Shown: positions 40,125 to 49,281 of the stretch, piece after piece
Position numbering within the stretch: the first letter of the stretch is position 1
Layout of the letters: each line of letters starts with the position of its first letter
The notes under the pieces: model-generated
What the model saw: only the letters and a program-made list of their open reading frames with translations
The model's database searches: none
What the model was told of the DNA's origin: nothing
Translations under genes and position numbers: made by a program
IMG/VR virus record: IMGVR_UViG_3300045970_000046
Span: 1-64,000 of that record
Length of the DNA stretch: 64,000 bases
Strand: one strand, 5' to 3'
Source of the DNA: a virus

Positions 40125-41441
40125 TTAACCCGGGAGTAAACCAGGAAGCTGATTATTAATCAGGAAGTTCAAGGCGTCAATAGTAGCTTGGTCTGTAGTA
40201 CCATTCAGGACTATAGCAGCGTATTCGCTAATAGCCTTACGTGTCTGGAAAACTTCCATTGTTGCCTGAATCGTAATATACTGCCCTATCTTACTTGCAA
40301 CCTGAACACTCCCTGGAAGGAAACGAGCCGTACATTCAGAAGGAGTGGAAGAATCTAGTATTAGATCAACCTGGAACGGTAGAGAACAATCTCGAAGTCT
40401 ACCGTAGAGTAACCAGAAAATTTTATAGTCTGTGGGATTTAGCTTCCATTTAGCCGTTACAATAGACGAGGAATTTTGGATACCGGGACTATACCGACTT
40501 AGACCAATTCCATATTCGATACTGATAACTTCGTCGTCTTTATCGGTAACGGTATATCCGTCCTGCAGTGGAACAAGGTATAGCTTCCGTGCCGGAGAAT
40601 CCGTAGCTACTGAAGCATGACCCGAAGCTGAACCACCTAGACCAACAGGCCCGTAGGTTCGAATATCGTCTTTAGTGGAAGCATGACCCGCGGCTGTACC
40701 TGTAAGGTCTACGGTACGAGATGTATGAGGTAAGGCCGTAGCTCCGGCATGACCTCCGGCGGTACCTCCCAAAGGAACAGGACCGGTAGTCTCTCCGGTT
40801 ACATCCGCATGTCCGCCAGACGTACCCCCTAGTAGAACGTCGGTCTGTAGCCCTGTGGCCACAGCACCCGCGTGACCAGAAGCTACCCCTGAAAGTGGAA
40901 TACTGCTTGGGTTCGTCCCGAAATAACCGGTAGGTACAATTTGAATGGCAGCTGTACCTCCGTCTGTACCTACGAAGTGGATAGGTGCTAGTTTAAGTGA
41001 AACCGTTGAATTATCAGTGCTAGTAAACGAGAGTAATGTACCAGAGGTATCTAGTACATCGGCCGTAGCCGTTATATCTACTACTGTACTATGACCGGAG
41101 GCTGTACCGGATAGCCGTGTAGGTACAGTATACGAGAGTACGGACGTTAAAGCACCGCGACCACCAGCGGTACCGGCTAGTGAAGTAGGCCCTGTACTCG
41201 TCACACCGGCTGTTCCGGAACCATGACCGGCAGACACACCACCTAATGACGTCGCTGTTGGAAGTTGAGTTGTTACCGTAGGACTAGATACAGTCGCCTG
41301 TCCGGAAGCGGTCCCGGAAAGCGGTATACGTATAGATTCTACCGTCACGTCATTAACAGTAATGGCTCCAGATCCGGGTACTACCCGTAAGGATAGAGTT
41401 GCATTACCTAGCGGTAACGTGAGGGTAGTTATAACCTTCAT
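40125..41441 (-). CDS. Gly/Thr/Ser-repeat stalk fused to distal-tail-like domain
   Basis: L.G.A.GHA repeats; C-terminal ~150 aa aligns by eye with 48919..49281. Confidence 0.75.
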   Translation of the reverse strand: MKVITTLTLPLGNATLSLRVVPGSGAITVNDVTVESIRIPLSGTASGQATVSSPTVTTQLPTATSLGGVSAGHGSGTAGVTSTGPTSLAGTAGGRGALTSVLSYTVPTRLSGTASGHSTVVDITATADVLDTSGTLLSFTSTDNSTVSLKLAPIHFVGTDGGTAAIQIVPTGYFGTNPSSIPLSGVASGHAGAVATGLQTDVLLGGTSGGHADVTGETTGPVPLGGTAGGHAGATALPHTSRTVDLTGTAAGHASTKDDIRTYGPVGLGGSASGHASVATDSPARKLYLVPLQDGYTVTDKDDEVISIEYGIGLSRYSPGIQNSSSIVTAKWKLNPTDYKIFWLLYGRLRDCSLPFQVDLILDSSTPSECTARFLPGSVQVASKIGQYITIQATMEVFQTRKAISEYAAIVLNGTTDQATIDALNFLINNQLPGLLPG

Positions 41442-43060
41442 GGAGTAGCCGGAAGTGTAAGTGTATCTACTACAACACCGTTAACTAGAACTTCCACCTG
41501 ACCACCTGTCGGAGAAGTGGCGTCAAGCTGCAACTGTAGGGGACGAGTCAGAGAATTCACAGTTTGAATATCCAGACCGGTGTCAGGGTTTAACGGTGCA
41601 TTCAATGATATGGTACCACCGTCTACCACAATACAATGCTGATTTGAAACCACCCCTACCTGAGAATCAACATCGGCCAGGTAGTCTCTAGTTCCAACCA
41701 GACCACCTACAGTTCTGGCTACTACGCGTACCTGCCAGTAATCGTCACCCCATGAGGTTAATTGATAGGCGTTATCGGTCCATCTGGAAACAGGTGGACC
41801 CTGATATACGCGTGTACCGTTAAGCCATAGCTCCACTTGGTTTACTGTATCGGAAGAACAGAAAGCTCCGAGGTCAACACTTACAGTACCACGAACTTTT
41901 ATATGAAGCAACCCTTCGGAATGCGTATCTTCGATCCCAATATCGTTATGAGCAACATTGTACCAGTCATCTGTATGCGTCTCCCCACGCCCCTTGAGGC
42001 GTAGATACGGAAAGACTTTATTGCTATTTCCTGGGAGCGTTGATTCAGCCTTCAGTACGGCGAGTTCTGCGTCAACTACACCGACCCCTGCGGCAGTATT
42101 GTAAAACATATCTACTTTCCATCCCTTTTTAGGTCTGGTAGCTGTCGAGATTAGTATATTTCTAACCTGTTCATTTGTTAGTGAGGGATTTTTCGCCCAC
42201 ACAAGTTGAGCAACACCACCAACCACAGAGGCGATATTAATCAGATTTGGGTTCCAAAAACCTACTGTTCCAGGAAAGGGAAACTTACCGTTTTCGTGAA
42301 TAGCCGAAATTCCCATATGGATCTGAGAGGCCAGTATGTCTACACGAGGTCCGTACTGGCCTCGGTAGGTGGATCCGGGATGCAGCATACTAAAGACACA
42401 CCGGGCCTCATCGTCAATCCTAACTCCTCCAACACATAGAACGTGCGGGGCATCACTAGGGCTGTAGGCGGTAGCTGTTGGATTAGCTATAAATGTTTCA
42501 TCGTCTCCAATATAAGAAACGACTAGGCATCCAGCCGACCACGCATTGGCAACGGCAAGGGCTACAGCCGAGCCGGTAACGGTAGGACCAGCCGGGGCTG
42601 TTGGATGGACGGTGACGATTACACGAGCGCCTGATGCAACGAGAAAATCTATCCCAGCTGCCATCGCCGAGGCACTTACACCCATGGCGAGCTGAATCCC
42701 ATCTACTGCCGTCGCTAGAGTAGCTTCCGGGGCAACACCGTATAACCGTCCGGTTCCACCCTTACCTACAAGAGTAACAGCCGGATTGATAGAGTAGCTA
42801 CCTCCACCACGGCCACTATTGATATTAGTCCCGCCGGTGGAGATATTCCGAGCAGCTATAACCTTACCTGTTAGTTCAGGGGTGTTGGGAAAGAAGTTAG
42901 GGTAGGATCCAGCCTCGCCAGGATATTCAGCACATATAAGTCCAATAGGAAAGGTTGCCGCTCCCGTACCTATTGTCCACGCCTCGTATACATGGGACCG
43001 CTGGAACGTATGCTGCCTACCAAACAAGGTGCTCTGATATGGGAGCTTATACCGGATCAT
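41438..43060 (-). CDS. S8 subtilase-like pseudoprotease
   Basis: YGVAPEA, YGPRVDILA, V.GVA.LVWA.NP.LT..QV..IL..TA, but no DSG/HGT/GTS motifs; GAAGGAGGAG RBS. Confidence 0.8.
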   Translation of the reverse strand: MIRYKLPYQSTLFGRQHTFQRSHVYEAWTIGTGAATFPIGLICAEYPGEAGSYPNFFPNTPELTGKVIAARNISTGGTNINSGRGGGSYSINPAVTLVGKGGTGRLYGVAPEATLATAVDGIQLAMGVSASAMAAGIDFLVASGARVIVTVHPTAPAGPTVTGSAVALAVANAWSAGCLVVSYIGDDETFIANPTATAYSPSDAPHVLCVGGVRIDDEARCVFSMLHPGSTYRGQYGPRVDILASQIHMGISAIHENGKFPFPGTVGFWNPNLINIASVVGGVAQLVWAKNPSLTNEQVRNILISTATRPKKGWKVDMFYNTAAGVGVVDAELAVLKAESTLPGNSNKVFPYLRLKGRGETHTDDWYNVAHNDIGIEDTHSEGLLHIKVRGTVSVDLGAFCSSDTVNQVELWLNGTRVYQGPPVSRWTDNAYQLTSWGDDYWQVRVVARTVGGLVGTRDYLADVDSQVGVVSNQHCIVVDGGTISLNAPLNPDTGLDIQTVNSLTRPLQLQLDATSPTGGQVEVLVNGVVVDTLTLPATP

Positions 43061-45473
43061 AAACTCCTCCTTCAATGTTACCGGAGATATCAATCCCGTA
43101 GAATTGTAGCTTTCCCGACTGGGGCGTAAGCGGAGCAAGATACGTGCTCCACGCTCCAGAACCCCACCGGTACCTAATTGTTACAGGAGCATTCTCACTA
43201 ACAGACGACAGTATGATAGTACCACGGGTGGCGGTAGGCCACGAAACCGTGGTAAGTGGAGCAGCAGCTGCAGAGGTGTGACCAATAACGTCGACATACT
43301 CCTGCTCGACGGTAAGCGTAGAGGTTCTAGCAACTAATTTTAGAAGATTCCCAGCTAGAAGTCCGGAGTTCAAAGGGATTAGCGAGTCCCATGTAGTTCT
43401 AGCCCCTCCTTGGTAAACCATTGTAGATCCGGCCCATAATTCCAAGGAGGTAATAGGATCCGAAGAATAGGCTATGAGCTCTACATATATAGTTCCATGG
43501 AGATGAACGGTAGGAACCCCCGAGCTCCAAACTACAGCATCACTGATAAGAATGGGAATATACCGCCCCATGATATCTCTTTTAAAGAAATTGCAGTAAG
43601 GAAAGATATGTCCTGCAAACTCCGGGACTAATGACAGCGCCTTGCTAACGGCCTTTCCTGCATTCCAAATACCCGGTAACTCAGGAAATAATGTTGTAAA
43701 ATCTGGATTCTGAGGCTTATCCCAAGTATCTTTAGCTATCTGACAGATCTGAAGCCCCGTTAAATCCATGTTAGCTGAACCGATTAGGGCACAAATTCCC
43801 ACTGAAAAGGGGGTAGCAGAAGACGTACCGTTAAAATAGGTGTAGTCCACTAGAGCGTTGTTTGGATTAGAAGGAGTGAACCACTCGAAATCGCTATCTA
43901 TAGCTCCGGACGTTGCGATCCCAGTTCCAGCCTGGTGGTAGACAGAGGCTAGAATCTGATGTCCATGAGCCACCGCATTAACCTTAGGACCGTAATTTGA
44001 ATAGCAAGCACGCTCGTCAAGCCGGGTGGTCTCTAGACATCCAACAGACAAAAATCCATATTCCTTACAAAGATTTCCGGGACTTCCCGACATGCCCGTA
44101 GAGTAATTACACGCGGCAAATAGGGCTGCGTCGCCGCGATCTCGGAGCAGGTCGAATGTTGTCCTATACTCCGCCAATAATCCACCGGTAGAAGTGTACG
44201 CAGAGCCCCAGGAATTATTCGAAATTTTAGCCCCCAACAGGGAACCCATTATCAGGCCCTCTGTTAGAGCCACAATGGTGACATAAGTTTCTCCCGGGGC
44301 TAGTTCCGTCCGCCAAGAGAAACCATTACAGCTAAACAAGGAGCATTCAGGAGCGACGCCAACAGGCCCGGCCTTTAGAGGTGAGGATCCTACGTAGTCC
44401 GGTTTGTTAGCGTTAGCCAAAATGACACCGGAGCAGCAGGTCCCGTGAGTTGCGGATCCAGCCGAATTATCCGTGCTGGGCCCGAATACCCCCTTACCGG
44501 GATTAAAACGGATTACTTTCTTTCCGGCAAACGCAGGCCACTGCTCTGCCGCAGTTGGGTAAAGGGGGCCTCCAGGGACTCCTAGGGTCGGATCACTAGC
44601 GGGACCCGTAAATGTAGAGTTAATTATTAATCCAGAATCATTTACCGTGACTAAGAAATCCGGGTGCCCCATCGTATACTTCCACGCCGAAAAGACATCC
44701 GACCGTAAGTGAGAATACTGTCTGGGAAGAGCCGCATCGCTGGCCCCATGGTATTTGCGTTTGGAAGTTTGATAGTTAGGGAGCCTAACATTAGTCGTAG
44801 TAGCCGAAGCGTGGGCTGTATCTACAGATGTTCTTGGCCCAGAGGAGGAAGCCCGCAGCGAAATATAACGGCCTTGTTTGGTACCTTCTACAGAAATTGT
44901 AGATGAGGGAACAGGCCCTGCACTCGGTTGCACCATACTCCATATACCTAACCCGTGGTTGAGTGCGTCAGGTCCTAACAAAATATCTGTAGATAGCGGA
45001 GGACCTACAGGCGTAGTCCACCACGTACTCAGAGTATCATAGTCATAACTAAACTCGTAATTATGGGCTAATAACAGAACAAGGCTGTTCTGCCCTAAAG
45101 TCGTAATTGAAGGAACAACTAGATCCGTGTATACAGTGATGTCGGGACTTGTGGCCGTAGCGAGCGAACCCACAACCTCTATCGGGGCTGTGGGATCACA
45201 ATCTCTATAGGCCGCCATAATAATATAGCCTGTACTATGGGCTATGTCGACGTTTTCATCAGTTAATACTTTGTAGCAAATAGCGAAGAAAGTTGAAGTT
45301 CCTCCCGCAGAATTTGAAGCTCCTGGGACTAGGGTCCAACCTGTAGGAGCCGAGCTAGTTCCGGTGATGAAGGCTATAACTACATCACCAGCTTCGAGAC
45401 CCGAGGGTACACCTTCCTTAGTGGGATCATCCCCACGGTACTTCCCTGTACTTACAAGATATGGGATTCTCAT
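43047..45473 (-). CDS. S8 (subtilisin-family) serine protease with extra N- and C-terminal domains
   Basis: VNDSG (D279), HGTCCSG (H343), NNSWG, AACN, NGTSSATP (S551). Confidence 0.92.
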   Translation of the reverse strand: MRIPYLVSTGKYRGDDPTKEGVPSGLEAGDVVIAFITGTSSAPTGWTLVPGASNSAGGTSTFFAICYKVLTDENVDIAHSTGYIIMAAYRDCDPTAPIEVVGSLATATSPDITVYTDLVVPSITTLGQNSLVLLLAHNYEFSYDYDTLSTWWTTPVGPPLSTDILLGPDALNHGLGIWSMVQPSAGPVPSSTISVEGTKQGRYISLRASSSGPRTSVDTAHASATTTNVRLPNYQTSKRKYHGASDAALPRQYSHLRSDVFSAWKYTMGHPDFLVTVNDSGLIINSTFTGPASDPTLGVPGGPLYPTAAEQWPAFAGKKVIRFNPGKGVFGPSTDNSAGSATHGTCCSGVILANANKPDYVGSSPLKAGPVGVAPECSLFSCNGFSWRTELAPGETYVTIVALTEGLIMGSLLGAKISNNSWGSAYTSTGGLLAEYRTTFDLLRDRGDAALFAACNYSTGMSGSPGNLCKEYGFLSVGCLETTRLDERACYSNYGPKVNAVAHGHQILASVYHQAGTGIATSGAIDSDFEWFTPSNPNNALVDYTYFNGTSSATPFSVGICALIGSANMDLTGLQICQIAKDTWDKPQNPDFTTLFPELPGIWNAGKAVSKALSLVPEFAGHIFPYCNFFKRDIMGRYIPILISDAVVWSSGVPTVHLHGTIYVELIAYSSDPITSLELWAGSTMVYQGGARTTWDSLIPLNSGLLAGNLLKLVARTSTLTVEQEYVDVIGHTSAAAAPLTTVSWPTATRGTIILSSVSENAPVTIRYRWGSGAWSTYLAPLTPQSGKLQFYGIDISGNIEGGVYDPV

Positions 45474-46112: not shown

Positions 46113-47108
46113 CTAGTATGATAAGCCACCTAGTTTAATGTCGTAAATTAGTCCGGATCCGAAGAGGTATAAGAACGTGCTCGCCGGAGTAGGCCAAGCA
46201 CCAGCCGTATTTAAGGTTACGTTTTGAATCCCATCTATGAAAGATAAAGTAGCACTCGTTCCCAGTCGGAATTCTATCCTGTATAGTTTATTTACCAACG
46301 GAGTTGGAACTAGATTAATTTGTTCTAAACCACCAGCTACACTAATACCAGACCAAGTCCCTAGCTCAGAGTCGTACCCAGCAGAGAATCCGTTTGTATT
46401 GGATAATAGAGTCTGCAAGCTTGCGGCGGTAGTATAAGTGCTTCCAGACAGCAAGGAAAATAGTCCGGAGCCATTGATACTATTCGTGGTCCTAGCGGCG
46501 CACCTAAATTCGAGATACCAAGGAGCGTCCTGCATTCCGGTAATACTAGCCTTAATAACGTCCGCGCCAGCCATGGTGACTATACCAGCCGAAACCGTAG
46601 GGGCACCTGCTACAATAGAGAACTGACCTAGAGTATTGGATGCAAAATCTTCATAGAGGACAACGCTGGGAGTGGTTTGAATAGTTAGAGTACGAGGACT
46701 CGCGAATAAGGCCGAAATATTACCAGCCGCGTCTTTGGCCCATGGGTAGAACGTTACGGATCCACGACCCTCCGCAATCCAGGAAGTTGGCACAGTAGCT
46801 ACCCACTTAGGATCTGCGGGGGACGGTTTAGTAGCGGATTCTGTAATTAAGTATCCTGCTATACCGCCAGCATGCGTTGCGTTAAGATTGTTAATCAGAA
46901 TACGAGCCCCGAGATGGGCTGTGTCATTGGCGTAGAGATTAAACGCATTCATTGAGGGAAGAGTATCTTCCACCGTAAAGGACCTACCGGAGACTACCAC
47001 CGTACCGTTTACTTTCATATCAACAGACTGAGCACCCCCGGCCATAGCTACATCCGGAATGGACCAATTTCCTGCCCCGTCAGCCGTAGTGGACCCAAGT
47101 AAAGCCAT
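46113..47108 (-). CDS. Ig-like + lectin-like domain protein
   Basis: GYLITES..P...W...P........YPWAKDAAGN.S; N-terminal half Ig domain. Confidence 0.75.
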   Translation of the reverse strand: MALLGSTTADGAGNWSIPDVAMAGGAQSVDMKVNGTVVVSGRSFTVEDTLPSMNAFNLYANDTAHLGARILINNLNATHAGGIAGYLITESATKPSPADPKWVATVPTSWIAEGRGSVTFYPWAKDAAGNISALFASPRTLTIQTTPSVVLYEDFASNTLGQFSIVAGAPTVSAGIVTMAGADVIKASITGMQDAPWYLEFRCAARTTNSINGSGLFSLLSGSTYTTAASLQTLLSNTNGFSAGYDSELGTWSGISVAGGLEQINLVPTPLVNKLYRIEFRLGTSATLSFIDGIQNVTLNTAGAWPTPASTFLYLFGSGLIYDIKLGGLSY

Positions 47109-47110
47109 AG

Positions 47111-48112
47111 CTATGTCCCCGTATCGTAAATAGTAACAGTTGATCCGGCCGCCGCGGTACCCGAGAACGTAACGGAGGCCGATGTAGTCTGACCAGCGGT
47201 CGGTGTTGCAAGTGTGTTCGAAACCGAACCACCTGAAATACTGACGGTTGAGGTTGCCCCCGCAATCCCAGCTCCGCTTCCCGCGATAGGCGCCGGAGCC
47301 CCCGTCTGGGTTCCGCTGCCACCAGAGCCAAGGCCTCCAGCCGAACCACCAAGAGATACTGTAGTAGCTGGTGCACTGGTAGTATCGGCCTGACCACCGG
47401 CAGCCCCGGAGAGGGCCGAGTCTACGATAACCGCACCGGCCGAATGTATCTCAATCGTCGCGTTAGGAACGACGACGCCGCTGAATGTAACCAAGGCCCC
47501 AACAGTAGACCCTTCAACCGGGAATTCCATAGACGCATCGGAGCCCGTCGATAGAGTCCCAAAAGATCCAGCCTGACCAGCGGCGGTACCACCCTGTGGA
47601 CCAGAAGTTGCCGCGGTTCCCTGTCCACCGGCGTGCCCCACGGAGGTCCCAGAGAGAGGAACAACCTGAGACAACGGGGCCGTAGCACCGGCCCGACCAC
47701 CAGCCGTAGCTTGTAACGGAGTTTGACCCGGTGTTGTTGTAGATATCGGACCTAGTTCGTTACCGTGGCCACCCGCTGTACCACCTAGGCCAGTAGAAAC
47801 ACCAAGAGCGGCGGTGGTTCCCCCTAAACCACCTGCCGCGCCTGTTGTTTTCCGTTCAGTGGATAGAATCCCACTTACATCTGCGTGACCCGACGTTGTT
47901 CCACCAGCTCCACCAGTGTCTAGTTGAGCACTAACGGTGGCCCTACCCGCAGCCGTTGCTTCTAGTATAAGTCCGAAGGGTAAAGGTGATTCCCAATAAC
48001 CTGAACTGTTGGCCTGAACAGGAGTAAGAGCCTGGCCGGCGACGGTAGGCGTCACAAAAGCGTTTGGAGTGGTTGAACCCCAAACCTTTACTCCACCAAT
48101 CTGAACAGGCAC
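47111..48112 (-). CDS. Gly/Ala/Thr-repeat protein with Ig-like segments
   Basis: L.GT.GG.A repeats; VTFSG motifs; GGAGG RBS. Confidence 0.75.
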   Translation of the reverse strand: MPVQIGGVKVWGSTTPNAFVTPTVAGQALTPVQANSSGYWESPLPFGLILEATAAGRATVSAQLDTGGAGGTTSGHADVSGILSTERKTTGAAGGLGGTTAALGVSTGLGGTAGGHGNELGPISTTTPGQTPLQATAGGRAGATAPLSQVVPLSGTSVGHAGGQGTAATSGPQGGTAAGQAGSFGTLSTGSDASMEFPVEGSTVGALVTFSGVVVPNATIEIHSAGAVIVDSALSGAAGGQADTTSAPATTVSLGGSAGGLGSGGSGTQTGAPAPIAGSGAGIAGATSTVSISGGSVSNTLATPTAGQTTSASVTFSGTAAAGSTVTIYDTGT

Positions 48113-48318: not shown

Positions 48319-48891
48319 TTACTGCTCTGTAACGTGAAGCGCCCCTGCCGTAAACGACGCCGTCGAGTTCTGCGTAACGGCTACAGGGGCGTTATTCACA
48401 GCACCCCAGTAGAGTAGGTTACCGGCGGTAGCTGCATCGTAAATCCCAAAGCACTGAACGGACCACGAAGTACCGCTGCTGTTAGTCCAGGCGGCGCTAC
48501 CGGAAATGGAACCGGCATTAACGTACTCGTCGGTATTCGTGTAGGTATTGCAGTTACCGGTACCGGAACCAGTGCAGCAGGTAAACGGCGCCTGGCTAGT
48601 GGTGCACGCACCGTTGGTCGCGTGTGTCCAACCGGTACCATTAGCGATAGCCGCCGAACGAGTAGTATATCCGGGTTGCGAACCGCTATTAAATTCAACT
48701 CCGGCGGTACCAGCCGCAGGGCACGTCGAGAATAACCCGACATAGGTATTGACCGGAGCCGAGAACGCCGTATTACCGAAAATCTCACCAAGCACCTTAG
48801 CCGAAAGATACGAATACTTCCCACCGGCCACGGCTAACAGCGGAAGAACTAGGGCGAGGGCAACAACTGCGAACTTCTTATTAAACTTCAT
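48319..48891 (-). CDS. virion-type beta-sandwich protein with signal peptide and Cys-rich insert
   Basis: MKFNKK-hydrophobic-AVA; YVGLF..P...G.E...GY; GIYDAATAGNLL; GAAGGAG RBS. Confidence 0.75.
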   Translation of the reverse strand: MKFNKKFAVVALALVLPLLAVAGGKYSYLSAKVLGEIFGNTAFSAPVNTYVGLFSTCPAAGTAGVEFNSGSQPGYTTRSAAIANGTGWTHATNGACTTSQAPFTCCTGSGTGNCNTYTNTDEYVNAGSISGSAAWTNSSGTSWSVQCFGIYDAATAGNLLYWGAVNNAPVAVTQNSTASFTAGALHVTEQ

Positions 48892-48918: not shown

Positions 48919-49281
48919 TTAGGAAACGATAGCTAAAGTAGCCTTAACAAGATACTGATCTCCGTGAATCTCCGCCAACTTCATCGTACCTTTTACGAAT
49001 TGTACAGTATGCTCAGATATTGTAGGATCGTCTACCAATAAATTGATCCGAAAAGCTGATGCCGTAAACTGGACTAACCTATAAAACGCACGAATATAAT
49101 CGTATTCTTGAGCATTACAATACCATGTAACGTCAATATGAGGCAATGTTTTATTTATAGGCTTAATTGAAGCCCTCCGGAATTTAGAGAAGCCTCCTTC
49201 AACAGCGAACTTTATTACATCAGCCTCAAATGTAATCCTATAACCTGATTCTTCCGGTGTAAGGTCTAGGGCTATAGACAT
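48919..49281 (-). CDS. distal tail (Dit/M-like) protein
   Basis: directly after tape measure gene; P...GY...V....GG.S.F...V.W...Y...FY. Confidence 0.75.
   Translation of the reverse strand: MSIALDLTPEESGYRITFEADVIKFAVEGGFSKFRRASIKPINKTLPHIDVTWYCNAQEYDYIRAFYRLVQFTASAFRINLLVDDPTISEHTVQFVKGTMKLAEIHGDQYLVKATLAIVS

Follow-up and report, generated by a model that had tools for sequence, protein, structure and literature searches.

A predicted jelly-roll domain at the boundary between two overlapping tail genes of a metagenome-derived phage

Gene fission is a known phenomenon, as are the complementation of protein fragments and donor-strand complementation. In the chaperone-usher pili (Fim, Pap and Caf1), an incomplete beta-sandwich is completed by a strand of the next subunit, giving a very stable non-covalent joint. 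In phage lambda, the distal tail protein, a hexamer, is gpM, and laboratory lambda differs from Ur-lambda by a frameshift in stf that prevents synthesis of the side fibres (PMC12617516). The literature that we searched on split domains or donor strands in phage tails held no direct precedent, and a domain resembling a carbohydrate-binding module (CBM) and cut between two translationally coupled phage tail genes was not found there. Here, we analyse a candidate for such an arrangement in positions 1 to 64,000 (the window) of the 75,119-bp IMG/VR virus record IMGVR_UViG_3300045970_000046, a metagenome-derived contig. It concerns two open reading frames (ORFs) on the minus strand, ORF1 and ORF2 (Table 1). 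On the basis of structure prediction, we give about even odds (0.5) to the reading that their boundary lies inside a CBM6/35/36-like jelly roll, the two fragments of which co-fold and so fix a pseudoprotease on a tail-tip stalk.

The fold predicted across the junction

At the junction, the minus strand reads ...ACT CCA TGA in ORF1. The start of ORF2 (ATG AAG GTT...) lies one base ahead of this stop, which puts ORF2 in the -1 (= +2) frame relative to ORF1. The peptide of ORF1 ends in ...GVVVDTLTLPATP-TGA (last residues ...TLTLPATP), and that of ORF2 begins with MKVITTLTLPLGNATLSLRVVPGSGAITVNDVTVE. An earlier note, made from this DNA alone, had quoted the ATGA overlap, the frame and the two peptide ends, all of which are exact, and had proposed that the ends together form a CBM6/35-like module bridging the two ORFs. 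It had suggested searching and modelling the joined termini, and doing so gave weak junction-spanning Pfam matches and a one-domain model.

For these analyses, the end of ORF1 was joined to the start of ORF2 in read-through peptides from which only the last Pro of ORF1 was dropped (P0002, 156 residues, junction at 119/120; P0003, junction at 42/43). The Pfam matches of P0003 were to TcfC E-set (E=2.8e-4, residues 14-67) and CBM_35 (E=0.094, residues 13-77 against profile positions 52-119 of 121), and both spanned the junction. Neither family was matched when the ORF1 and ORF2 halves were scanned separately, and when five other junctions of the module were read through as controls, 0 Pfam families appeared even at E<=10. 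A PDB sequence search with the read-through found no match.

AlphaFold2 (AF2), run on P0002 with no alignment, placed a beta domain over residues 62-155, with a predicted local distance difference test (pLDDT) score per ten residues from residue 61 of 56, 56, 57, 79, 80, 76, 60, 71 and 74. When residues 60-156 of this model, which span the junction, were compared with 48,161 PDB representatives by VIA-align, the matches included CBM6E (8j3x) with a Z of 10.4 and a root-mean-square deviation (rmsd) of 2.5 A over 100 residues, CBM36 7ay3 (Z 10.2), XynJ 2dcj (9.9), CBM36 1ux7 (9.8) and the CBM35 structures 3zm8, 4qb1 and 2w46 (9.5-8.8; 9.5-8.7 for the CBM35 entries as a whole). Overall, the CBM6/36/35 matches had Z values of 10.4-8.5 over 92-100 residues; the phage depolymerase Kp32gp38 (Z 9.8) and lambda gpJ (7.9) were also matched. 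CBMs ranked first with Foldseek as well (8wc1, E=4e-4; 8j3x, E=8e-4; range to 5e-3). The predicted model (pLDDT 56-80) thus has the jelly-roll fold of the CBM6/35 clan.

When the same ORF1 segment was modelled without the 37 ORF2 residues, the pLDDT over residues 61-120 was 36, 29, 32, 44, 51 and 49, and the strands at 62-95 vanished. According to the earlier note, independent folding of each part would have spoken against a bridging module, and the ORF1 tail modelled on its own, at a pLDDT of 29-51 and with most strands lost, is not predicted to fold in this way. What is predicted, then, is one fold across the junction in which the tail of ORF1 depends on the head of ORF2. A contiguous paralogue of the junction domain was not found in the window (phmmer --max). 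The possibility that the domain is a second copy of the Big_7-like domain of ORF1 was considered and rejected, the local alignment scoring 33 against a shuffle mean of 28.6. Taking the predictions together, we find it quite probable that a single CBM6/35/36-like jelly roll spans the ORF1/ORF2 junction.

A second junction in the same cassette behaves in the same way at the level of sequence comparison. Here, a 333-aa ORF and a 331-aa ORF meet at the sequence ACA TAG CT ATG, again with a +2 frame, and a GGGGA Shine-Dalgarno (SD) sequence precedes the start of the 331-aa ORF. Its read-through (P0025, junction 50/51) matched two families across the boundary, Big_6 (E=3.4e-4, residues 20-69) and Big_13 (E=0.0067); scanned alone, the two ORFs gave no Big-family match. 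The second split described in the earlier note is thereby borne out. Its statement that both splits have proper restart signals holds for the ATGA overlap at the ORF1/ORF2 junction and for the GGGGA at the second; it falls short in that the former has no SD and that deletion of one base suffices to create it.

The two proteins and their relatives

ORF1 matched Pfam Peptidase_S8 (PF00082) with 32.4 bits against a cut-off of 21.8. When ORF1 was aligned (A1) with 12 metagenomic relatives and with ORF0, an active paralogue, it showed ICAE at the Asp position and GTVGF at the Ser position, and it had no HG at the His position; the active relatives and ORF0 have D(S/T/D)G, GTS and HGT, respectively, at these three positions. 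Judged by its sequence, ORF1 is a degenerate S8 subtilase that lacks the Asp-His-Ser catalytic triad, i.e., a pseudoenzyme, in line with the S8-like pseudoprotease of the earlier note. It most likely starts at ATG 43060 rather than at TTG 43138 because a strong SD, GAAGGAGGAG, precedes the former. The S8-like part is followed by a Big_7-like immunoglobulin (Ig) domain and by the N-terminal ~60% of the split domain. The Big_7-like domain is the last part of ORF1 with detectable relatives: an exhaustive HMMER search with the last 220 residues against 1.84 billion representatives returned 18 relatives, 0 of which align beyond position 168 of the query.

ORF0 (43047-45473, minus strand) lies in tandem with the triad-less ORF1; it is an S8 subtilase whose triad is intact and whose N-terminal domain spans ~230 residues. 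This N-terminal domain was likened to that of another metagenomic protein, P0001, by eye only. Short ORF1-like forms without the N-terminal part recur in metagenomes (P0006, P0008, P0009, P0015 and P0022).

In ORF2, ~37 N-terminal residues are followed by a nine-copy repeat interrupted by one inserted beta domain; the first repeat begins at residue 41, immediately after the split-domain piece. The repeat, L-x-G-x-A-x-G-(H/Q/R)-A, matched no Pfam family and also occurs three times in the 333-aa ORF (47111-48112) of the second split. The C-terminal domain of ORF2 shares 25% identity (E=3e-10) with the 120-aa ORF located after the tape measure gene, and it gave tblastn matches to phage minor tail and virion structural proteins; a PDB sequence search found no match to it. 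The gene downstream of ORF2 encodes a DUF1833/phrog_396 protein, so that the C-terminal domain of ORF2 stands before the gpL-like gene, an order that is the same in phage Kmi2C. By homology and position, the C-terminus of ORF2 is a Dit, or lambda gpM-position, domain that may have the ring fold, and this agrees with the Dit-like C-terminus that the earlier note had assigned.

Proteins with a comparable layout in a single chain were found among metagenomic sequences. P0012 (759 aa) unites an S8 head with a prodomain, the same Big_7-like domain as ORF1 and three stalk repeats in a single polypeptide. P0023 and P0024 have a weakly pectate-lyase-like head on the stalk repeat and P0001 has another, unknown head, with 6-11 copies of the repeat in these three proteins. 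A complete small beta domain stands directly before the first repeat in P0001, P0023 and P0024, where ORF2 has only ~37 residues. ORF1 plus ORF2 is collinear with these single-chain head-stalk proteins, which fits the fission of one gene.

Single-protein scans of viral contigs found no relative of ORF1 or ORF2; a word-index protein search gave no match to ORF1 and one repeat-only match to ORF2; a search for longer forms gave two repeat-only matches and no fused ORF1-ORF2 form. In tblastn searches of phage GenBank sequences, ORF1 had no match and ORF2 was matched only through its C-terminal domain. Scans of viral, metagenome and genome contigs with P0009, P0012, A2, A3, the J-like protein and P0024 returned nothing, and no relatives of the junction domain were found in viral-contig, word-index or exhaustive HMMER searches.

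The proposed joint and its alternatives

We propose that ORF1 and ORF2 would be made from the same mRNA by termination and re-initiation at the ATGA, i.e., by translational coupling. The ~60-residue tail of ORF1, unfolded by itself, and the first ~three strands of ORF2 (~37 residues) would then co-fold by fragment complementation. As a result, the pseudoprotease head would be held non-covalently on the nine-repeat stalk, with the C-terminal gpM-position domain of the stalk sitting at the tail tip and adjoining the DUF1833 protein. Most simply, the split would have arisen by fission of a single head-stalk-anchor gene, possibly through one base deletion. Binding in trans, the location in the virion, the stoichiometry and any sugar binding are inferred.

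Several observations weigh against this proposal. The Pfam scores of P0003 are under the gathering cut-offs (20.8 bits against 29.4, and 13.5 against 28 for CBM_35, PF16990), and therefore membership of the CBM family is not supported, while the fold-level call is; of the bridging module claimed in the earlier note, the fold stands on AF2, VIA-align, Foldseek and the collapse of the ORF1 tail, and the family assignment does not. The structural evidence is moderate-confidence prediction from single sequences throughout, and residues 1-11 of ORF2 (pLDDT 60) are not in a strand in the P0002 model. A two-chain prediction of ORF1 490-566 with ORF2 1-60 scored 0.38 (best of 3 controls, 0.01), which lends weak support, in a range where a pass is more often wrong than right unless the prior is high: of 78 solved complexes, 51 reached the mark, as did 2 of 108 mismatched pairs, and passes at <=0.60 comprised 5 of the 78 and every one of the 4 mismatches (of 180) that passed. 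The two-chain runs had at least 67% of contacts in agreement and the partner pLDDT was at least 48; chain 1 had a pLDDT of 53-60 with the true partner versus 38-41 with unrelated ones, and the partner 48-53 versus 33. The last ~55-70 residues of ORF1 had no relatives in the exhaustive HMMER search, and neither a contiguous version of the junction domain nor a second case of the same cut came to light in it. At the DNA level, an SD is absent from the 20 nt before the ATG of ORF2, unlike for most neighbouring genes, which leaves the ATGA overlap as the sole restart signal. Furthermore, CCA-TGA-AGG is one deleted base from CCA-NTG-AAG, so that a single deletion yields both the TGA and the ATG, and a continuous ORF is one single base away, as it would be after a recent frameshift.

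The last of these points leads to an explanation in which a recent frameshift broke a single head-stalk-anchor gene, with ORF2 made by re-initiation, the half-domains being unfolded leftovers and ORF1 being lost from the virion or decaying. Before such a deletion, CCA-NTG-AAG would read P-(M/L/V)-K in one frame, and the +2 frame of the second split is likewise consistent with a one-base deletion. The missing SD of ORF2 and the fact that ORF1 is catalytically dead already would both fit, the essential role of gpM could be filled by the phrog_384 protein encoded separately after the tape measure, and the loss of side-fibre synthesis in laboratory lambda relative to Ur-lambda is a precedent (PMC12617516). 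However, both breaks have an ATG at or <=2 nt from the new stop, the second with its GGGGA SD as well, and by a rough estimate an ATG at two random deletions is unlikely unless downstream expression was selected. The junction sequence also dominates without variants in two samples, at depths of 132 and 16, and the predictions favour co-folding over disorder. We regard a frameshift scar as unlikely. About as unlikely is that there is no shared domain at all and that ORF1 and ORF2 are ordinary coupled tail genes whose beta-rich ends resemble a jelly roll only when joined. Within this module, genes regularly overlap through ATGA or TAATG, which makes the ORF1/ORF2 overlap an ordinary one. The sub-threshold Pfam matches, the moderate single-sequence AF2 confidence and the weak range of the two-chain score would all suit such genes, and a VIA-align Z of 10 is not far above the background, the best Z being typically 7-8 for models that lack a clear match. 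Evidence against this view comes from the collapse of the ORF1 tail without the ORF2 residues and from the lack of any Pfam match in the five control junctions; the top fold matches of two aligners also fall consistently in one clan (CBM6/35/36) over 92-100 residues across the junction, and ORF2 has only ~37 residues before its first repeat, versus the whole beta domain in P0001, P0023 and P0024.

Two further explanations would make ORF1 and ORF2 a single protein. A programmed -1/+2 recoding event at the overlap could fuse them, the ORF2 frame being open only 16 codons upstream of its ATG, so that the shift would have to occur within the last 16 codons of ORF1; the relatives do hold head and stalk in one chain. 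We consider recoding highly improbable, given that the last 25 codons of ORF1 contain no X XXY YYZ slippery heptamer and no homopolymer run, that the junction has no RNA structure beyond that of shuffles (z = -0.89) and that the ATG lies exactly at the stop. More improbable still is a sequencing or assembly indel in what is really one gene, although the frames differ by one base and the record is metagenome-derived. Over 40900-42000, the sequence agrees, with 0 differences and 0 gaps, with Logan contigs that were assembled separately from two pond-metagenome runs; these come from two samples of two studies, and the word depths are 132 and 16. This control is not fully independent in that the two runs may be source samples. 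The site has no homopolymer. Since the junction is identical in the contigs of two runs, the DNA is real and an assembler artefact is excluded; a read-level error at the junction is very unlikely, which upholds the view of the earlier note that random sequencing error is not the cause, and a real mutation is compatible with the match.

Going back to the co-folding of ORF1 and ORF2 and adding the second split, we tentatively suggest a wider principle, to which we give somewhat less than even chances: a tail-tip appendage built from separate gene products that would be joined by fragment complementation at two cut beta-sandwich domains, CBM-like at 41441 and Ig-like at 47108. If true, enzyme-like heads could be mounted and exchanged in a plug-and-socket manner on a Dit-anchored repeat stalk, an assembly principle for phage tails that was not described in the literature searched. 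It would explain how large accessory heads such as proteases and depolymerases are mounted on the tail tip, recombination at the cut could exchange one head for another, and the halves would be natural split-domain pairs for protein engineering. If the halves reassemble, gene boundaries within domains would be a functional joint and not an annotation problem or a pseudogene. For annotation, it matters that domain searches on single ORFs find nothing at these ends. Should the junction be no more than a frameshift scar, the case comes down to the ordinary decay of a gene in an accessory cassette.

The tail module and comparison with known systems

The minus strand of the window carries a lambda-type siphophage tail module that includes a tail assembly chaperone and a tail-completion protein. 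After the 120-aa phrog_384 protein come eight further genes, followed by the DUF1833/phrog_396 minor tail protein, a K-like 118-aa protein, a J-like 973-aa protein (phrog_469, E=5e-185) and a 1760-aa fibre, for which a Hint-like C-terminus was suspected by eye and Pfam detected none. The nearest cultured relatives, with J-like proteins 35-41% identical, have the order tape measure, phrog_384, minor tail protein, K-like and J-like, Klebsiella phage Kmi2C being an example of this canonical order without the eight-gene block. Since the order in the relatives lacks it, the eight-gene block between the phrog_384 copies is an inserted cassette.

Some other features of the module deserve mention. The phrog_384 domain occurs twice on the minus strand (48919-49281 and 40143-40580), and the copies bracket the eight-gene cassette. 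The tape measure protein is very long (2126 aa) and has an SLT lytic transglycosylase domain (E=1e-24). In the cassette, a 190-aa protein (48319-48891, minus strand) was matched by Pfam to Gp80, the podophage GP4 fibre I protein (E=6e-17); such a fibre component is unexpected in a siphophage tail module.

Table 1. Features of the ORF1/ORF2 region and of the surrounding tail module, in window coordinates
Feature	Position	Strand	Basis or remark
ORF1	41438..43060	minus	540 aa from ATG 43060 (566 aa if TTG 43138)
ORF2	40125..41441	minus	438 aa; piece of the split domain, then a stalk of repeats into which one beta domain is inserted, then the gpM-position domain at the C-terminus
ATGA, stop TGA of ORF1 overlapping start ATG of ORF2	41438..41441	minus	4-nt overlap
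N-terminal part (~60 aa) of the predicted CBM6/35-like jelly roll, end of ORF1	41441..41623	minus	read-through model residues 60-119
C-terminal part (~37 aa, ~three strands) of the predicted jelly roll, start of ORF2 (MKVITTLTLPLGNATLSLRVVPGSGAITVNDVTVE)	41331..41441	minus	AF2 residues 120-156, pLDDT 60-74
Big_7-like Ig domain of ORF1 (VELWLNGTRVYQGPP...)	41654..41926	minus	Pfam Big_7 E=0.0085, below cut-off
Stalk repeat of ORF2, nine copies of ~20-22 residues, L-x-G-x-A-x-G-(H/Q/R)-A	40614..41321	minus	regex count
C-terminal phrog_384 domain of ORF2	40143..40580	minus	phrog_384 E=1e-10 to 1e-11; gpM/distal-tail position
Second split	46959..47263 (junction 47108/47111)	minus	333-aa ORF ends ...GSTVTIYDTGT-TAG; 2 nt later 331-aa ORF starts MALLGSTTADGAGNW
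120-aa phrog_384 protein	48919..49281	minus	directly after tape measure; canonical gpM-position gene, paralogue of ORF2 C-terminus
Tape measure, 2126 aa	49281-55661	minus	TMP_3 + SLT domains (Pfam)

Compared with the lambda-type tail tip (gpM, gpL, gpK and gpJ), the order phrog_384 - DUF1833/phrog_396 - K-like - J-like is alike. In contrast to that tip, phrog_384 is duplicated here, its second copy ends a 438-aa stalk protein, and eight extra genes lie between the copies; the likeness to gpM is positional. The case of lambda stf (PMC12617516, citing Hendrix and Duda 1992), in which a frameshift turned one accessory tail-appendage gene into two ORFs, is similar. There, the fibres were lost, in a laboratory strain, whereas the break between ORF1 and ORF2 comes with a coupled ATG, no other form of it was seen in two environmental samples, and the cassette has a second such break. 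The single-chain head-stalk proteins P0012, P0023, P0024 and P0001 share the ~20-residue repeat with ORF2, and P0012 also shares the S8-like head and the Big_7-like domain of ORF1, but each is one polypeptide with no detectable homologue of the junction domain and with a C-terminal anchor that differs from phrog_384.

The described modules closest to the junction domain are those of CBM6, CBM35 and CBM36 (8j3x, CBM6E; 7ay3 and 1ux7, CBM36; 4qb1 and 2w46, CBM35), which are alike in the predicted jelly-roll fold at an rmsd of 2.2-2.8 A. The C-terminal pattern of the read-through, ...VNG....L.LP......L.LG.ATL.L......ITVNDVTV, resembles positions 52-119 of the CBM_35 profile. CBM modules have 120-140 residues in one chain, whereas the junction domain would have ~97, cut about 60/37 between two genes. 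The pili are alike in another respect, namely, the joining of different gene products across one beta-sandwich, which is proposed here from prediction. Pilins lack and receive one strand and rely on a chaperone and usher; here, ~three jelly-roll strands would be donated, with no chaperone or usher, between unrelated phage-tail subunits made in the cytoplasm.

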